Source: Pelagibacteraceae bacterium AG-422-B15 (GTDB lineage: Bacteria; Pseudomonadota; Alphaproteobacteria; Pelagibacterales; AG-422-B15). From it: a stretch of 45,023 nucleotides of DNA. Positions within the stretch are counted from its first letter, which is position 1. Every line of letters begins with the position of its first letter. Below are positions 19,837 to 35,004 of the stretch, in pieces. Made by a program: the position numbers and the translations under genes. The notes under the pieces are model-generated. The model ran no database searches. It was not told the origin of the DNA and saw only the letters and a list, made by a program, of their open reading frames with translations. The DNA is taken from assembly GCA_905182445.1 (NCBI GenBank), contig CAJJBM010000012.1, positions 1-45,023 on the forward strand, given 5' to 3'.

Positions 19837-20117
19837 TGAATAAAAAATTGTCCATTACTGATCGAAATGCTGCACTTATAAAATTAAAAGATTGGAAATT
19901 AGTAAAAGGTAGAAATGCTATAACTAAAACTTTTCAATTTAAAAACTTTAATGCTGCTTTTAGTTGGATGACAGCTATGGCGTTACATGCTGAAAAATTA
20001 GATCATCACCCGGAATGGTTCAATGTTTATAATAAAGTTATTGTAACTTTATCTACACATGATGTGGAAGGTATATCTAAGCTAGATATTAAACTTGCAA
20101 CAATAATGAATAAATAA
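19836..20117 (+). CDS. phhB: 4a-hydroxytetrahydrobiopterin (pterin-4a-carbinolamine) dehydratase
   Basis: [25 protein letters not shown]. Confidence 0.95.
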
Positions 20118-20123
20118 AATTAT

Positions 20124-21053
20124 TTATTCAACAGCAAAAGTTACAAGTGGTCGTTCAATAAATACTGCACATGAATATGTAAGATTATCAGAGGAATCAT
20201 TATATTTCAACCACTTTGCTGCAACTGCATTAGTAACATCAAAAGTCATTTTCACAGTTGGATTAACATCTGTAGTTTTAGTATAAGTCTCATTCAGTCT
20301 ATAGATTAACGCAAAAGTTGAAGCATCTGCATCAATTCCACTTTGCCATATTAGTGGTGCTATGGGTGTTGAATAATTATTCGTGAATGTATAGTGCGTG
20401 CCTTTTTGCAAACCTAAATCATCAAAAAACTTAATGTTCAAATTAACTTCTGATCCACCTAAGGTAGTATTTGGTAAGTTGGCAGGGTTTGTTATATTAT
20501 TAACAAACGTATCGTTGCCAGGTCCTTGAGGCAAAGTAAATGCTTGTGAACTTGACGTGCTTGAAACTGCTCCTGCAACAAAATATATACTAGTATTAGA
20601 ACCAGTTCTAGTTGAGCAAGTTCGGTTTCCTGCAGTTATTTCATTAATGCCACTACCAATATTTGCTGCAGTTGTAGCTGTTACTGAAGCATTAAGATTT
20701 ATAGTGTTTGACATTGTTACTCTCATATATTTGTAACCAATATTCTTAGTTATTCCAGCTGAGGTATTTGAATAGCTACAGGCATTGGTGTTTGCTGAAG
20801 CTGTTGCGGCAATATCACAACCACCAGTCATAGTTTTGTTAAATGTATAGTCATTACTACCTGTACAAATACCTGTTGCCGGATTGAAATCTTCACACAT
20901 CTGCATACTTTGTACATCGAACTCCATTTGAGTCGGCGTTCCATAAACAACATAAGGACTATCCAAAGGCAGAATTCTAAGATAAGCCTCCGCAAATACA
21001 TTTGATGAAGTTAAAGTAAATATTGCAATTAAAATAATTTGAATTTTTTTCAT
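20124..21053 (-). CDS. secreted Thr/Asn/Ser-rich hypothetical protein with 6 Cys; putative partner of the adjacent inverse autotransporter barrel
   Basis: Signal peptide MKKIQIILIAIFTLTSSNVFA, beta-strand-like alternation. Starts 2 bp after the barrel gene's stop, with AGAGGA SD inside the barrel's last codons. Confidence 0.85.
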   Translation of the reverse strand: MKKIQIILIAIFTLTSSNVFAEAYLRILPLDSPYVVYGTPTQMEFDVQSMQMCEDFNPATGICTGSNDYTFNKTMTGGCDIAATASANTNACSYSNTSAGITKNIGYKYMRVTMSNTINLNASVTATTAANIGSGINEITAGNRTCSTRTGSNTSIYFVAGAVSSTSSSQAFTLPQGPGNDTFVNNITNPANLPNTTLGGSEVNLNIKFFDDLGLQKGTHYTFTNNYSTPIAPLIWQSGIDADASTFALIYRLNETYTKTTDVNPTVKMTFDVTNAVAAKWLKYNDSSDNLTYSCAVFIERPLVTFAVE

Positions 21054-21055
21054 GA

Positions 21056-21976
21056 TTAAGATCCTCTTACTATTACTGCACCGCCAGGTTGAGCAACTTT
21101 TTCAGTGACAATTTTGTTTGTTCTTCTTACTTTATGTAACATTTGACCTGACATATTTTTCTCTGGGAACATATGTTCAGTAATTGTGTGTGTAACAATT
21201 GTTTGTTTAAATTCGTTTGCAGGCCATCTTAAAGTAAGTTTCCAAAAATCTTCTTTACTACCTACATCTGGATCACTTTGACCTACTTCAAGAATCATAT
21301 TTCTTAATACTTGTGCTTCTAAGCTATAGCGTTTTCCCTTAGTATCAGTGCTAGTACCTGACCAAGCATAGTTATTATAAACCACTTTACCCCATGGCAT
21401 ATAAGGTAATTGACCAACAATATTAATATCATGGCCATTTAATACAGTCTCTGTAGTTGTACCATATTTAGATGTGTCACCTAATCTTTGATATTTATTT
21501 GCATAAATTTCAAAAGCACTTGTTAAATATTCAATTCCTAGACTTGCTCTTTGATGCTCTTGTTCAAACTCATGGTCATAGAATAAATTAATACCTAGGA
21601 TTGAATTATTATTTTGGGCCAGAGTTCTAAAGCCTAACCCAACATTTAACAGTGTTCTTTGATCACCATTTGCATACGGCTCATGATTTGCTAATCGAAG
21701 CTGAGTAAAATACAAATGTTTATTAGAAATTTTTGAATATGGATTCATTGCTAGCGGGCGAACAGCCAAGATAGAATACCTTAAGTCGTAATTATCTTGT
21801 GAATGAATAGTGATTTCAGTATCACCTTTACCAGGCAATGCTGATGTAATCGTCTCACCTAATTTATTAAGTGTATGATTTATACCGTCTTGTAATACAT
21901 CTTCTGCATTAACTACGTAGAGCGAAGATAATATTAAGGTTATTGAAATAAAAGTAATTTTTAATTTTTTAAACAT
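21056..21976 (-). CDS. stand-alone inverse autotransporter (intimin/invasin-type) beta-barrel domain protein
   Basis: Signal peptide; LNVGLGFR, ILGINLFYD, HQRASLGIEY, YANKYQRL, LNG.DI...GQLPY.PW, and linker KVRRTNKIVTEK (compare invasin-type V.R.N.IVLE). The protein ends 13 residues after the linker. Confidence 0.87.
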   Translation of the reverse strand: MFKKLKITFISITLILSSLYVVNAEDVLQDGINHTLNKLGETITSALPGKGDTEITIHSQDNYDLRYSILAVRPLAMNPYSKISNKHLYFTQLRLANHEPYANGDQRTLLNVGLGFRTLAQNNNSILGINLFYDHEFEQEHQRASLGIEYLTSAFEIYANKYQRLGDTSKYGTTTETVLNGHDINIVGQLPYMPWGKVVYNNYAWSGTSTDTKGKRYSLEAQVLRNMILEVGQSDPDVGSKEDFWKLTLRWPANEFKQTIVTHTITEHMFPEKNMSGQMLHKVRRTNKIVTEKVAQPGGAVIVRGS

Positions 21977-22013
21977 AATAAAATAATGAGATTGATTGAT
22001 TTTTATAATCGTG

Positions 22014-22041
22014 AAACTAGATGATTAACTTAGATTGTCAA
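22014..22041 (-). promoter_or_regulatory. putative sigma70 promoter of the barrel-partner operon
   Basis: Minus strand TTGACA (22041-22036), 16 bp spacer, TAGTTT (22019-22014). Confidence 0.5.
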
Positions 22042-22074
22042 ACACTTGATTATTTAAAAATTAATTAATAATTT

Positions 22075-23268
22075 TTAGTTCTTTCTGAGTCTTAGGGCAT
22101 TTAATTTAATAAAGCCTTCAGCATCTTGTTGACTATAAATATTGTCATCATCCTCAAATGTAGCTAAGCCATTGTTATATAGTGAAAAAGGCGATTCTCT
22201 ACCAGTGACCATTACATTGCCTTTATAAATTTTAATACGGACCCTTCCAGATACATTGCTTTGTGTCTGATCTATCATAGCTTGCAACATATCTCGCTCA
22301 GGTGAAAACCATAAACCATTATAAATTAATTTAGCGTATCTAGGGGCGATGTCATCTTTGGTGTGAGTCACTTCTTTGTCTAACGTTATACTCTCTATTG
22401 CTCTATGCGCGTGATATAGAATTGTTCCACCTGGCGTTTCGTAAACTCCTCGAGATTTCATTCCAATAAATCTATTTTCGACCAAGTCAATCCGACCTAC
22501 GCCATGCTTGCCACCAATAATATTTAATTTTTCAAGCAAGTTATAAGGGGACAAAGACTCATTGTTGATTGCACAAGCATCACCAGATTTAAAATCTATA
22601 ACTATTTCTTCAGGTTCATTTGGTGCATCAATTGGAGAAACTGATCTTGTATAAACATATTCAGGTGCTTCAACAAATGGATCCTCTAAAACTTTACCCT
22701 CAGCAGAAGAATGTAAAACATTAGCATCGATACTAAAAGGTTGCTCACCACGTTTATCTTTAGAAATTTCAATATTATGTTGATCGGCATATTTAACTAA
22801 TGCCGCTCTAGAATTCATATCCCAAATTCTCCAAGGACTTATGATTTCAATATCTGACTGATGATAATAATAACCAAGTTCAAATCTAATTTGATCATTA
22901 CCTTTGCCAGTAGCGCCATGCGCTACTGCATCAGCTTTAACTTGCTGAGCAATCTCAATTTGTTTTTTAGCAATTAGTGGTCTGGCAATGGCAGTTCCAA
23001 GTAGATAGTAACCCTCATACAATGCGTTGGCTCTAAACATTGGGAAGACATAGTCTTTTACAAACTCTTCTTTTAAATCTTCAATAAAAATTTCTGAGGT
23101 ACCTTGTTGTTTTGCTTTAGTTTTAACTGCCTCAAAATCTTCCTCTTGACCTAAATCTGCTGTAAACGTTACTACTTCACATTGATAGTTTTCTTTTAGC
23201 CATTTTAATATTACCGAAGTATCTAAACCGCCAGAATAAGCTAAAACAACTTTATTTACTTTCTTCAT
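22075..23268 (-). CDS. argG: argininosuccinate synthase
   Basis: [36 protein letters not shown]. Confidence 0.98.
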
Positions 23269-24374: not shown

Positions 24375-24896
24375 TTATGAGCAAGCTTTATTGATTGCTT
24401 CAAGTGCTTTAGTAAAACCAATTAATGAATAGGTATCTGTGATCTTAGTATTTCTTGTTGAAATACTTTTAACTTTTACTCTAGAACCTTTTCTCATTTG
24501 CTGAATAATTTTTTTTTCTAATTTTGTCTCTTCAACCCAAGCACCTTCTCCTGCTGTAAAAAGTTTATGAGCTGAATCTCCAATAATCATTGTTGCATTA
24601 GACCCCAATTTAAATGGGAACCCTGCTTGTACACTTGGCTCATTAAATACTTTTTCATTTGGCATATTGGTAATCATTAAGGCCGCTGAGCCACGATTTA
24701 AATTATCTGGTGAAGTGGAGATTGGATTCGATGACATAAAACATATTTTTTGATCTCCATTTTCAGAAACTCTAGCCATCCAAGCCTTACCAGATCCGTA
24801 CTCTCCAATTAGTTTAGAATCAACAATACCAAAGGCATTCACAGAAGTTGCTAGTAGAAATATTGCAATTAGTTTAGTATAAAATCTCATATTCAA
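24375..24896 (-). CDS. invasion-associated locus B (IalB) family periplasmic protein (start may be 24890)
   Basis: Signal peptide, W......KICF, MRKG, DTYSL.GFTKA....KAC. Conserved position upstream of rlmN. Confidence 0.85.
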   Translation of the reverse strand: MNMRFYTKLIAIFLLATSVNAFGIVDSKLIGEYGSGKAWMARVSENGDQKICFMSSNPISTSPDNLNRGSAALMITNMPNEKVFNEPSVQAGFPFKLGSNATMIIGDSAHKLFTAGEGAWVEETKLEKKIIQQMRKGSRVKVKSISTRNTKITDTYSLIGFTKALEAINKACS

Positions 24897-30986: not shown

Positions 30987-33900
30987 TTAAAATGCGTATG
31001 AGACAGATGCCGATAACGTATCTTTATCTATAGATATATTACTTTCAGCGTCACCTAATTGATTAACATACGATAATGAAGCGCTTACTGCACCTTTAGT
31101 AGCACCTAGGCCTAATGCAAGTGACATTCTACCTTCAACAAAACCACCTAAAGACGACGGTCCGTATCCATAAGGATCATGTGACCATGCAAAATTAGGT
31201 CTTACACTCCATTGCGTATTTGCAAAGTTATTGTATGTTGCTGCTCCTATTAATCTATATGACAATGAAGTTGTTCCGGCACCTGGATTATCTTCACAGT
31301 AACCACCGTTACCGAACAAGCCATCAGTTTGTGACGACCCAATTGCAGTAACAGATTTAGTGGCTGTATAAACATTGGATGTACCAAAAGCACCTTTACA
31401 CTTTTCCGATGAATCTCCACTTTCAGAAAAACCTCCACGAGCAACATAACCACTAGAATTATCTAGATCGGCGATTGTAACCATAGCTAATTCAGTTAGG
31501 AACACAACACTATCAGCGCCAAGTCCGACAGTAATCGGGTGAGAAGCATTGAATGCAGAAGTTGTTCCAATATCAGCTGACCACACATCATACTCTATAA
31601 ATGGAGTAGAATAATAGTCTCCTGCAATTACTGTAGCTGTAGAGATTGCTGGTAATGATGAACGCTTAAAGTCACGCAGTGCCGTAGTATAGGCTGCAGT
31701 GCTTTGAGTTGTATAAGCACCTGTTGCACCAAGTACCTGATAACCAAGGGCCATTTGTAGACCATCACCTAATGATGTGCTACCAGCACCAAGTGCATCA
31801 GCATCAGTAGCCGCTGTACGTCCTAAACCATCAAGTTGGTTAAAAGCTACCCAGTTTAATGTTTGAGTTGCACCAGAAGCATCTGCTAATTGGTTAACCT
31901 GACTGCCACCTGGCGTTGCCAGTGGGAAATCCGGTCTATAACTTAATTCCCCTTGAACCACAGTACCGTCAACAACGGTGCTGAAACTAGTTCCAAAGAT
32001 TTGATTATCTTCGGGAAAGATAAAGTCATATTCAAAGTAATTCATAGGAGTAATTGCCGCACCAATGATTGCACCAGTTCCCATTATTGCTAAATGAGTA
32101 TCTTTAGCACCACCAGTTTTATCTGTTCCTGATGCACTACCAAATGCTGAAACACCTCCAGCAGCATGTCTTGTGTCTGAAGTTGTATTAGCTGCTGTTG
32201 CAAACCCACCACATTTATTTGGATCATGCGCTTTACTTTTAACTCCAGTAATTGCAGTAGACATCATAGCATTTGCCCATGCTGCACGCTCTTGTACTGA
32301 CGTAGTGAATTTGTTACCTGTTGCACCACCACTATAAATAGCTGTAAAAGCTTTACCTAATGCGGCATTACAGATCGCTGAACTATAAGCAATTTCTTGG
32401 ATCCCTTTAACAATATTTTGTCCAAAAGTGTTGCCTGTAAAAGCTGTGTTGTAAGCACCACCAGATTTAAATGCAGCCAGTGCACTAAAGTTGTTATCCA
32501 TTTGGTCATAGACTGCTGCGTTAAACAATCCGTATAGATCGCCAGCGAATAATCCTTTTTGACCCTTAACTCTTAAGTAAGGTACTTTACTGTGATAGTT
32601 AGAATAGTAGAACGATAAATCAATTCCGCCCGCTGTATCAATGTAACTTGTAAGTTTAAGTCCAAACTGACCATCACTTCTAGCATGCTTAAATTTACCA
32701 TCATCAGCAACAGAAATTTGCACGCCACCGATACGTTCAGTAGGTCTAACTGTATGAGAGCCAGCAAGTGTCATTGCTTCTAAAAAGCCAGCCGTAGTAT
32801 TTTGATAAAATGCGCTACCCGCTGTTGTTGCTGTTGTTAAATCTGCAACAGTTTTACCCGATGGTAAACCAGTAGTTAAAGTTGAAAATGTATTTTGTGC
32901 TAAGCTAGCTGACCCAAATACTTTAGTAGTTGTAATTCCTTGACCAATTGCAGTAGCAGTTTGCGAAGCTGAAGATCCAGCTGCCAAATCAAATGCGGCA
33001 TCTAAGAAGGTATCAGCTGAATAAGCTCCAGTACTAGCAGTAGCATAAATTGCATCAGTACAATTTGCAGTGCTTGCTGCATAAGTTAACTGATATGGAC
33101 AAGTATTAGAATTTTCATCTTGGAAAGAACCGCCAGCAATTAAGCCTGCTTCACCCGTACCAACAACTTCACTACCAAAAAATGATCCCGCAACATCTAG
33201 CTGAACCATGTCAGTTTGAAATTGGTAATATCCTTCAATACCAATACCATCAATATTAGATGCTAAAACAATTTGTTCTACTGGCATTAGTGCTTCTTTA
33301 ATAGAAGAACCAGGTGCTCTTAATTTTGTTAAATCTAAAGCGCCGGTTACTAAACCGTTAGCAGTAACTGGAATAAAAGTTGCTTCACCCCAACTAATTA
33401 CTGATCGCCCGATAGTTGCATCAATAAAGTTGTTACCAGTATCAAATTCAGTAGTGATATAGGCATTCAATAAAGATAAGTTTTGCTCTTGTTGCTCTAA
33501 AGCGTCTGATTTTAATGTTTTAAAGAGTGGTGCATTAATATCATTCACTGGATTTACGTGTCCAGTTAATGAAAGGTTTATGCCAACCCCATTAGTGTTA
33601 CCGATAATTTCAGTATAAAATTTTTGTGTAGCATTAACAATATCACCATTGTCAAAGTTTAAATTGCCATCATCAGAATTAGGGTTACTGCCGGCGATGT
33701 TTATATATTCAGTTGAGGTGTTGCCATAAGCATCAGTTCTATATCCTGAACATCCTGCTCCATTTTGTGAATAAATTGAACCCCATGCACCTACCACACT
33801 AGTATGTTGATAGCCAAAATTTACACTACAATCTCTTTCTGAAGCTCTCATTGTGAATCCAGAAGATAAAGTAGTATTGATTGTTCCGGAAAAATTTTCA

Positions 33901-33995: not shown

Positions 33996-34069
33996 GTTTT
34001 ATTCCCCAATTAACATATTAAATTTGTACGAGTAATAGCTTTTTTTATAGATCCCACTCGATTGCGATC

Positions 34070-34098
34070 ATTACACGAAAAAACTAAAGAATAGTCAA
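34070..34098 (-). promoter_or_regulatory. putative promoter of the DUF1302-DUF1329 operon
   Basis: Minus strand TTGACT (34098-34093), 17 bp spacer, TGTAAT (34075-34070). Confidence 0.45.
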
Positions 34099-34278
34099 GA
34101 ATTATATATAATAATTAAGCTTATCAATTAACTGTTTTAAATAGTTACATTATATATGTATTCAAATTACATATTTAATTATGCAAATTAGACTTTGTGT
34201 ATCCGAAAATTAGAGTATTTTGGCTTAATTCAAACTATTTAATGATTTTTAGGATAAATTCATCACATATTACATAAA

Positions 34279-35004
34279 TTAAAGTCTATTTGAAGCATGG
34301 GCTTTCTTAATAGATTTAACTAGAGCTGTTTGGTTGGGTTTTCTAGCAATATAAATATATTTAAATTTATATTGCCTAAGTGGCTTTGCAGCACGCTCAC
34401 TAATACTATACGTGTTTATTTTCTTAACATCTGATAAAATCTTATACTTCGATACAAGGTTTAAAAAAGTATCTACAGACAATAATGAATAGAAAACAAT
34501 ACCTCTAACTTTATTTAGTTTTAAATTATTAATTATGTGTTTTGATAATTTTTTCGAAGGAAGTGTCTTATAAATTGTTTTTTTTTGAATATTTAATTTA
34601 TTTTTTTTGGCTTTGATAAAAAAATCTTTATTTATAATATTGCTACCAAAGTAAATAAAATTAACTTTTGAATTTATTTGGGTATTTAAAATTTTTATCA
34701 ACGAGTCGCCGTCTTCAGATACCGCCAATACCCTCTTACAACCTAACTTAATTAGAGCTTGTTTTACTTTTTTTCCAATAGCAAATATATTTGCATTTTT
34801 AAATTTATAAATTTGTTTACTATTGATCAAGCTTTTAACAGAATGAATACTTGGAAAAATATAGTAATTATTTTTATCATAAGCAATTTTATTTTTATGA
34901 TATTTAAAGCTGTATAAACTTTCTTGACAGGTTTCATAGCCCTTAGAAGTAAGTAATAATTCTAAATCTTTTGATTGTTCTTTAGGGCGAGTAATTAAAA
35001 TCAT
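34279..35004 (-). CDS. hemD: uroporphyrinogen-III synthase
   Basis: MILITRP, FAIG, YKT, FYS, SISER, ARKPNQ. Overlaps the end of hemC. Confidence 0.88.
   Translation of the reverse strand: MILITRPKEQSKDLELLLTSKGYETCQESLYSFKYHKNKIAYDKNNYYIFPSIHSVKSLINSKQIYKFKNANIFAIGKKVKQALIKLGCKRVLAVSEDGDSLIKILNTQINSKVNFIYFGSNIINKDFFIKAKKNKLNIQKKTIYKTLPSKKLSKHIINNLKLNKVRGIVFYSLLSVDTFLNLVSKYKILSDVKKINTYSISERAAKPLRQYKFKYIYIARKPNQTALVKSIKKAHASNRL

Follow-up and report, generated by a model that had tools for sequence, protein, structure and literature searches.

A stretch of 45,023 nt from Pelagibacteraceae bacterium AG-422-B15 (contig CAJJBM010000012.1, hereafter called the window; 32% G+C, part of a 722-kb assembly that is 62% complete) contains two adjacent genes on its reverse strand, one for a passenger-less β-barrel of the intimin/invasin type (21056-21976(-), 306 aa) and one for a protein of an unnamed family with predicted Sec export (20124-21053(-), 309 aa), to which we refer as the partner. 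Barrel and partner constitute a conserved, co-inherited and position-independent two-gene module. Our judgment, which leans only a little to the favorable side of even, is that the module is a split type Ve (inverse autotransporter) system, in which the short C-terminal tail of the barrel protein anchors the partner on the cell surface through donor-strand complementation.

The first protein is a true IAT_beta domain, with a predicted fold like that of the intimin and invasin β-domains. Its match to PF11924 (IAT_beta), which is the only one in the 722-kb assembly, has an E-value of 2.1e-33 and a score of 116.5 bits against a cut-off of 22.3, and it aligns profile positions 23-279 of 279 with residues 25-287 (21116-21904(-)), directly behind a signal peptide predicted by eye at residues 1-24 (…LYVVNA/ED; 21905-21976(-)). 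All of the NCBIfam matches were inverse autotransporters with scores far under the full-length cut-offs, as expected because the protein consists of the barrel alone; the best of them, NF007556 of the YchO/YchP type, had an E-value of 6.5e-12 and was likewise far under its cut-off. When the AlphaFold2 (AF2) model, which was built with 26 relatives and has a predicted local distance difference test score (pLDDT) of 80.9, was searched with Foldseek, the β-domains of invasin (4e1t; E 2.9e-14, template modeling (TM) score 0.79) and intimin (4e1s; E 1.4e-12, TM score 0.78) stood well above the other barrels among the PDB matches, and a phmmer search with the sequence found 4e1t at 7e-10 and 4e1s as well. 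No Big or Ig-like family matched the barrel or the partner at E ≤ 1 in Pfam or NCBIfam, no LysM or other periplasmic domain was found on the barrel, and a C-terminal Ig-like or lectin passenger on the same chain was found neither in the window barrel nor in any of the 59 short-barrel relatives described below. An earlier note on this DNA, made from the letters alone, had proposed an inverse autotransporter barrel devoid of an Ig-like passenger and had named a search against the IAT_beta family as the way to check it; the profile match and the stop codon 13 residues past the linker bear that proposal out.

The C-terminus of the barrel protein consists of the pore-linker motif KVRRTNKIVTEK (residues 282-293; 21098-21133(-)) followed by VAQPGGAVIVRGS, with which the chain ends, 13 residues beyond the motif. 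Among 26 aligned barrels, the motif shows no variation at R285 and N287 and hardly any at K282, V283, R284 and I289, and the PF11924 match ends at residue 287, the last profile position. At the end of the linker, the AF2 model places a strand at residues 291-295 (TEKVA), which is likely the equivalent of the C-terminal strand of the intimin linker. In intimin, that strand takes part in a small sheet where the barrel opens to the outside, and it is required for protein stability, the protein being abolished without it (PMC13078405). Past the TEKVA strand, where the first Ig-like domain of intimin would start, lies the tail QPGGAVIVRGS (residues 296-306; 21059-21091(-)), which is a predicted donor strand on the basis of its pLDDT and of the predicted interface described below. 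When the barrel was folded alone by AF2, its last nine residues had pLDDT values below 50 and the tail was left unplaced. The same pattern, Gly and then a stretch of 5-7 residues rich in hydrophobic ones, is found in the tail of all of the barrel subfamilies; among the tails are GGAVIVRGS, FSVKAGGF, LTVIGF, VVITRLN, ITMSRTD and ATISRLD. The tail ends with …KAGGF in the main Pelagibacteraceae class (the barrels of loci L037-L071), with …VIGF in another class, and with …RGS, …RLN, …RTD or …TKK in the remaining ones; the C-terminal Phe, which is reminiscent of the β-signal of outer-membrane proteins, is not universal.

The connection between the two genes rests on a survey of loci with one genome per species, which gave 73 loci, 59 of them with a short barrel. 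The 14 that were set aside comprised long fused forms or frames running off the contig end in Bathymodiolus symbionts, Ruthturnera, Thiodubiliella and Thioglobus; also set aside were two fragments, L054 (in which the script found no ORF) and L014 (a short barrel at a contig end). Except for one truncated by a contig start, the 59 short barrels have 279-327 aa, in keeping with 113 barrel clusters of which the 101 full-length ones with more than 49% identity have 296-326 aa. In 59/59 short-barrel loci, an ORF of 234-331 aa follows the barrel gene at a distance of -4 to +12 nt (58 located by the script, and L051, from Ca. Pelagibacter ubique HTCC8051, by inspection), and because of this recurrence the barrel-partner order is far beyond chance. 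All 59 downstream ORFs begin with a hydrophobic N-terminus, and they form one single-linkage BLAST cluster that includes the window partner. The reverse search, in which metagenome contigs were searched with the alignment of the partner subfamily, returned 12 loci, three of which were too short; in all nine with at least 360 nt upstream, a barrel ends 5-8 nt 5' of the partner. The expectation of the earlier note that passenger-less barrels should consistently precede homologs of the partner was therefore borne out from both sides. In the window itself, the junction reads TAA-TC-ATG with a 2-nt spacer, and a Shine-Dalgarno-like hexamer, AGAGGA (21062-21067(-)), lies within barrel codons 304-305, 8 nt 5' of the partner ATG; both ORFs, the gap and this hexamer are where the first reading of the sequence had put them.

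The module is widespread, and the two genes travel as a pair. The short-barrel loci belong to Pelagibacteraceae, unclassified Alphaproteobacteria, SUP05/Thioglobus, other Gammaproteobacteria and one Burkholderiales metagenome-assembled genome. The genes that flank the module in the window recur in only one of the 73 loci, and there is no third conserved gene, the most frequent other neighbor family being present in 18/59. Tandem modules exist in 7/59 loci (L025, L032, L033, L039, L046, L053 and L074), always in the order barrel-partner-barrel-partner and with modules of different subfamilies, so that paralogous modules coexist within one streamlined genome. Each barrel subfamily has a tail type of its own and corresponds to a partner subfamily, and the pairwise identities of barrels and partners are correlated with a Spearman coefficient of 0.83 (55 modules, 1485 pairs, after five modules with cut or broken members had been left out). 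Within the family of the window organism, an IAT_beta match is present in 43 of 60 genomes, including 9 of the 13 that are at least 90% complete, at 1-3 copies per genome of 1.2-1.3 Mb, and nearly all of the open frames are of about 300 aa.

The partner protein starts with MKKIQIILIAIFTLTSSNVFA, followed by EA, a hydrophobic N-terminus that by eye is a Sec signal (predicted signal peptide, residues 1-21, …SNVFA/EA; 20991-21053(-)). Pfam and NCBIfam searches with the partner and 15 relatives (16 members) gave only chance-level rows at E ≤ 1 and no family. A partner-family profile made from 39 partners nonetheless matched, among 1.84 billion representatives, 1217 clusters (defined at 50% identity) at E ≤ 1e-3, 560 of them at E ≤ 1e-10. 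The top 150 relatives have lengths of 108-376 aa, too short for a fusion with a barrel, and a search with the partner alignment against proteins of 581-2000 aa, which is a weak search for such forms, found no fused barrel-partner protein either. A single fused ORF in relatives, which the earlier note had regarded as fatal to the idea of a split system, was thus not encountered in either search. Across the partner family, C53, C63, C146 and T148 are invariant and the strands at both ends are conserved; the cysteines are probably disulfide-bonded. The AF2 model shows a mostly β, Cys-containing β-sandwich with a pLDDT of 64.3, interrupted by a disordered insert at residues 177-234 with values below 50. 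Fold searches reached a best E of 0.47 in Foldseek against PDB, a best Z of 3.6 VIA-wide and a best E of 0.2 in BFVD; the top VIA rows were a phage neck protein and a PRMT β-domain, and a Bacteroides fimbrial protein appeared at Z 2.8. Matches in the ESM Atlas were only clusters of “hypothetical protein,” with DUF3060 and DUF4382 as weak leads. The idea that the partner might be a lipoprotein was dropped, given that the window partner has no Cys at the cleavage site.

A physical association is supported by prediction of the complex, for which barrel residues 25-306 and partner residues 22-309 were submitted with their own, unpaired alignments. The interaction score ipSAE was 0.78, 0.82 and 0.77 in three runs and 0.00, 0.00 and 0.36 in the controls; the mark used for this score is reached by 116/157 solved complexes and 2/215 mismatched pairs, counts that are only rough for alignments of our own. 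The three runs have at least 91% of their contacts in common, with a partner pLDDT of at least 66. In the predicted complex, the tail (residues 296-306) makes up the whole confident interface of the barrel, and its residues 300-303 contact partner residues 91-95 and 266-271 with an expected error of 0.5-0.9 Å, the lowest-error pairs of tail and partner residues being 302:269, 302:270 and 301:269. The tail is thereby predicted to lie as a strand between two strands of the partner, as in donor-strand complementation. One wall of the predicted groove is formed by partner residues 86-99, which contain the invariant ANTNAC (20757-20798(-)), and the opposite wall by residues 262-274 (DVNPTVKMTFDVT; 20232-20270(-)); both were assigned from the interface and from invariance, the motifs invariant in the subfamily within these segments being ANTNAC and P..KMTFDVT. 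Of the interface residues of the partner, 21/35 are invariant in the subfamily, versus 81/232 of the rest (Fisher p 0.008, which is indicative only because the sequences are related). The model supports binding of the barrel tail in a groove of the partner, and the capture of the partner by an extruded strand, which the earlier note had suggested together with complex prediction as its check, has gained support as a prediction, with the tail as sole contact and 0.78 against 0.36 for the highest control.

The two genes differ in the way they evolve. According to Nei-Gojobori estimates, both are under purifying selection overall, with ratios of nonsynonymous to synonymous substitution rates (dN/dS) of 0.04-0.26 for the barrel and 0.20-1.02 for the partner, which rise to 0.36-1.02 in the pairs with a partner dS below 0.2; the partner evolves faster than the barrel. 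In the clade of the window, two types of partner allele, of 309 and 299 aa and about 50% identical, are distributed discordantly with the barrel tree. Comparison of L075, L076, L078, L081 and L082 with the window (20124-21976) gave dS values that are discordant between the genes: 0.83 for the barrel and 0.12 for the partner between L076 and L078, 0.73 and 1.88 between the window and L078, and 0.33 (C-terminal 121 codons only) and 0.03 between the window and L075. The discordant dS values and the distribution of the alleles therefore suggest recombination between the two genes, by which partner alleles would have been reshuffled against the barrel at or near the junction. The interface motifs are common to both allele types, and either type could therefore fit the same tail. 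From this evolutionary pattern we infer that the partner is under selection from phages, grazers or other cells. As for expression, six metatranscriptome runs contain much of the stretch, and contigs from RNA libraries of three studies bridge the junction (X16, the longest, 20064-21897; X15, 20673-21757; X17, 20272-21238), while record 19 of X20 extends to 21984. Most of 21985-22340, on the argG side, is covered by no RNA-library contig, and such missing cover proves nothing.

These observations can be accommodated in the following scheme. The first gene would provide a 12-stranded intimin/invasin-type barrel with its pore linker and without a passenger, in which the linker is followed by only 11-13 residues, Gly-Gly and then the short hydrophobic strand AVIVR; the second gene, which would be translationally coupled to the first, would provide a Sec-exported β-sandwich protein. 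The tail might enter as a donor strand between the partner segments around residues 91-95 and 266-271, where it would complete or extend the sheet of the partner and tether it noncovalently to the barrel. The chains of intimin and invasin exit the pore at the outer face, and the tethered partner would, by analogy, be located on the cell surface, where its fast change and its swapping by recombination would be those of a surface-antigen-like protein. As to the path taken, a speculative route leads through the barrel itself, or through a hybrid of it with the barrel of the β-barrel assembly machinery (BAM), during assembly, with the pairing of the tail pulling the partner along; tail pairing would then, still speculatively, stand in for the covalent hairpin of classical type Ve secretion. 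Alternatively, the partner might cross the outer membrane by some other route. A type II route was tried as a candidate and rejected: four genomes of the window's family that carry IAT and are 94-100% complete (G010, G040, G052 and G057) gave no secretin match (PF00263), and because of this absence at a completeness of at least 94% the route is unlikely in that family. G065, from a sister family, has both a secretin and an IAT_beta barrel, so that the rejection does not hold in general. Within the window's family, genus g2 has a secretin in 2/3 genomes and IAT_beta in 0/6, and genera g1, g3 and g4 have IAT_beta with no secretin found in the genomes searched; secretin and IAT_beta may be inversely distributed in this small sample (genomes G001-G067).

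Several points weigh against anchoring of the partner on the surface by the tail. A 12-stranded pore filled by the linker is not obviously passable for a partner of 290 residues that probably contains disulfides. The partner model is mediocre, with its pLDDT of 64.3, and lacks a clear structural relative, and therefore no incomplete Ig-like fold could be assigned to it. The complex model was built on unpaired alignments, and when an unrelated protein took the place of the barrel, the control still gave 0.36 and 215 contacts, so that the prediction tends to bring the partner into contact with other proteins. Conservation over the whole partner family is 0.41 at the interface and 0.34 in the rest, which is a small gap. 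RNA libraries can hold DNA, and the contigs that bridge the junction are no proof of a single transcript. Finally, Heinz 2016 proposed that two-partner inverse autotransporters might instead be oriented with their C-terminal part in the periplasm (PMC4943183), and in that topology the contact between barrel and partner would be periplasmic as well.

This last point leads to the main rival explanation, namely that linker and tail never pass outward, or that the partner binds the tail before threading, and that the complex is periplasmic, with the partner serving as a periplasmic accessory, plug or assembly factor of a small outer-membrane channel and not being displayed on the surface; we regard it as unlikely, while giving it more weight than any other alternative. 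It has the merit that no export route across the outer membrane is needed any longer, and the inverted topology has been put forward in the literature (PMC4943183). The conserved cysteines fit a disulfide-bonded periplasmic protein equally well. However, the linker and barrel are conserved as in intimin and invasin, which are the best structural matches, the strand that ends the intimin linker is located at the extracellular mouth (PMC13078405), and the high dN/dS, the two divergent alleles and the recombination of the partner would be unusual for a periplasmic housekeeping factor.

Less likely still, in our estimation, is secretion as in the ZirT/ZirS system, in which the barrel would translocate the partner and free it into sea water, the contact with the tail being a transient hand-over. 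ZirTS does have the same gene order and a Sec-dependent downstream protein, and secretion of ZirS needs ZirT (PMC2270342; PMC4943183); the lack of a secretin in the four genomes mentioned above, which makes a type II route unlikely there, also fits a barrel that acts as the translocator. On the other hand, the prediction has the strand tightly inserted, with an expected error of 0.5-0.9 Å for the best pairs, rather than loosely docked, the linker of the barrel occupies its pore, and a protein freed by a planktonic oligotroph would be diluted away. The tandem modules, moreover, keep cognate pairs one to one, as fits a stoichiometric complex. The long fused relatives of 583 to >1707 aa in Bathymodiolus symbionts, Ruthturnera and Thiodubiliella might suggest an artefact or decay, that is, a classical inverse autotransporter whose frame was broken by a stop codon or frameshift, or a pair of unrelated neighbors, but this explanation is highly improbable and is effectively refuted by conservation, because the split form occurs in 59/59 loci of Alpha- and Gammaproteobacteria with purifying selection on both genes, the partner has its own start codon and a signal peptide (by eye), no Big/Ig Pfam match was obtained at E ≤ 1 for 16 partner members, and the complex prediction passes its controls. 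As an observation on the long forms themselves, they are found at L016, L019, L030 and L031 (also L018, L022 and L072), that is, in the symbionts and the two genera just named, and the short split form is that of free-living SUP05/Thioglobus.

A split type Ve system with a tail-bound partner would share features with several known systems. Like intimin and invasin, the window barrel has a signal peptide, a 12-stranded IAT_beta barrel and the conserved linker; unlike them, it carries 11-13 residues after the linker in place of several Ig-like and lectin domains, and its candidate cargo is encoded by a separate gene. The arrangement of an IAT barrel gene followed by one or more co-oriented genes for a Sec-exported, barrel-less protein is shared by the window pair with ZirT/ZirS(/ZirU), SinH/SinI and Yfr4. 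Dependence of ZirS secretion on ZirT was reported by Gal-Mor 2008 (PMC2270342), and two-partner inverse autotransporters were proposed by Heinz 2016, according to whom the translocator keeps immunoglobulin superfamily (IgSF) domains of its own and the substrates resemble them (PMC4943183). In contrast to that type, the window barrel has no domain past the linker, the partner belongs to a different, unnamed family without a detectable Big or fibronectin type III (FN3) signature, and the predicted contact is insertion of a tail strand rather than one between domains. The window barrel also resembles the short YchO/YchP invasins, as a short member of the IAT family with NF007556 as its best NCBIfam match, and differs from P39165 of Escherichia coli K-12, which we take to be YchO, in lacking a fibronectin-III-like module. 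P39165 (b1220) is listed with one such module at 352-449 in Table S7 of Heinz 2016 (PMC4943183).

With the donor-strand complementation of chaperone-usher and type V pilins, the proposed contact shares, in the prediction, a short terminal strand with alternating hydrophobic residues that enters between two strands in the β-sandwich of another chain. The principle itself is described for FimA (PMC6615685). The module is not a member of the chaperone-usher systems, because no third gene is common to the 59 loci, and the resemblance is confined to the predicted strand binding: no chaperone or usher gene lies in the neighborhood in these loci, no polymer is involved, the donor strand comes from the tail of an outer-membrane barrel, and with a best fimbrial match of Z 2.8 no pilin or Ig fold could be assigned to the partner.

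The gene arrangement in Pelagibacter has been catalogued before, without analysis. Tables S5/S6 of Heinz 2016 contain a barrel with a downstream gene from Ca. Pelagibacter sp. HTCC7211 and, from the marine fosmid EB0_35D03, what is seemingly a tandem module, while the main text nowhere mentions Pelagibacter, and Table S7, on models of C-terminal extensions, omits these proteins (PMC4943183). The statement of the earlier note that no characterized example was known from streamlined marine bacteria thus holds insofar as the arrangement had not been analyzed, but has to be corrected insofar as the HTCC7211 pair had already been tabulated. The operon of HTCC7211 has three locus tags, and none of them is mentioned in a Red Sea mdRNA-Seq paper in which genes of this strain are listed. 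The literature searched contained nothing that joins Pelagibacter with an inverse autotransporter and nothing on topic, by title or abstract, for SAR11 and invasin, and for inverse autotransporter and donor strand it contained only reviews with both terms. Nor did we find in it a barrel without any passenger domain, the unnamed family of the partner with its size, the one-to-one pairing of subfamilies, the tandem modules, the contact of a tail in a groove or the recombining partner alleles.

The surroundings of the module in the window are those of housekeeping genes. One flank holds argG (PF00764 and PF20979) and then rlmN, and the other a gene for pterin-4a-carbinolamine dehydratase (PF01329) and then one for an aldo-keto reductase; these Pfam matches confirm the neighbors argG and phhB named in the earlier note. 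The same note had credited the pair with a candidate promoter of its own, which a promoter scan does not support: the 98-nt spacer between argG and the barrel gene (21977-22074(-)), presumably the promoter region, contains zero sigma-70-like sites in the scan, and a perfect TTGACA seen by eye at 22041-22036 is not followed by a -10 hexamer 16-18 nt away, the closest TATAAA lying 28 nt downstream at a noncanonical spacing. A terminator scan downstream of the pair found none. Two genes upstream of the barrel, past rlmN and argG, a 173-aa protein with a signal-peptide-like N-terminus (24375-24896(-)) matches the Pfam family IalB, “invasion associated locus B,” with an E-value of 1.2e-13. Elsewhere in the window, the sole Rfam match is the ffh sRNA RF01793 (1860-1911(-), 54.8 bits), tRNA genes are lacking, and the G+C content rises to 0.40-0.42 and then falls to 0.24 at 31001-33000 and 34001-35000, the level elsewhere being about 0.32.

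By definition, type V secretion unites barrel and cargo in a single chain. In the known splits, ZirT and SinH, the barrel retains Ig-like domains, and the way they work still awaits an explanation, whereas here the split is complete and the barrel keeps only a tail, for which a testable contact is predicted, so that the question of how a partner is held or moved in two-partner inverse autotransporters becomes addressable with two small genes. It is possible, and we put it forward tentatively, that the module embodies a new way of building a bacterial surface, in which a passenger-less type V barrel exposes an 11-residue tail that completes, by donor-strand complementation, the fold of a separately exported protein. 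If this is true, SAR11, SUP05 and other abundant marine bacteria would possess a modular, exchangeable surface protein, whose alleles recombine freely against a conserved anchor and which may rank among the main protein targets for pelagiphages or grazers. The module is common in the most abundant marine heterotrophs, and because of its presence in 43/60 genomes of the window's family and in metatranscriptomes and of the antigen-like evolution of the partner, the latter can be regarded as a candidate major surface protein in SAR11 and SUP05 and as a candidate determinant of their interactions with phages or grazers.

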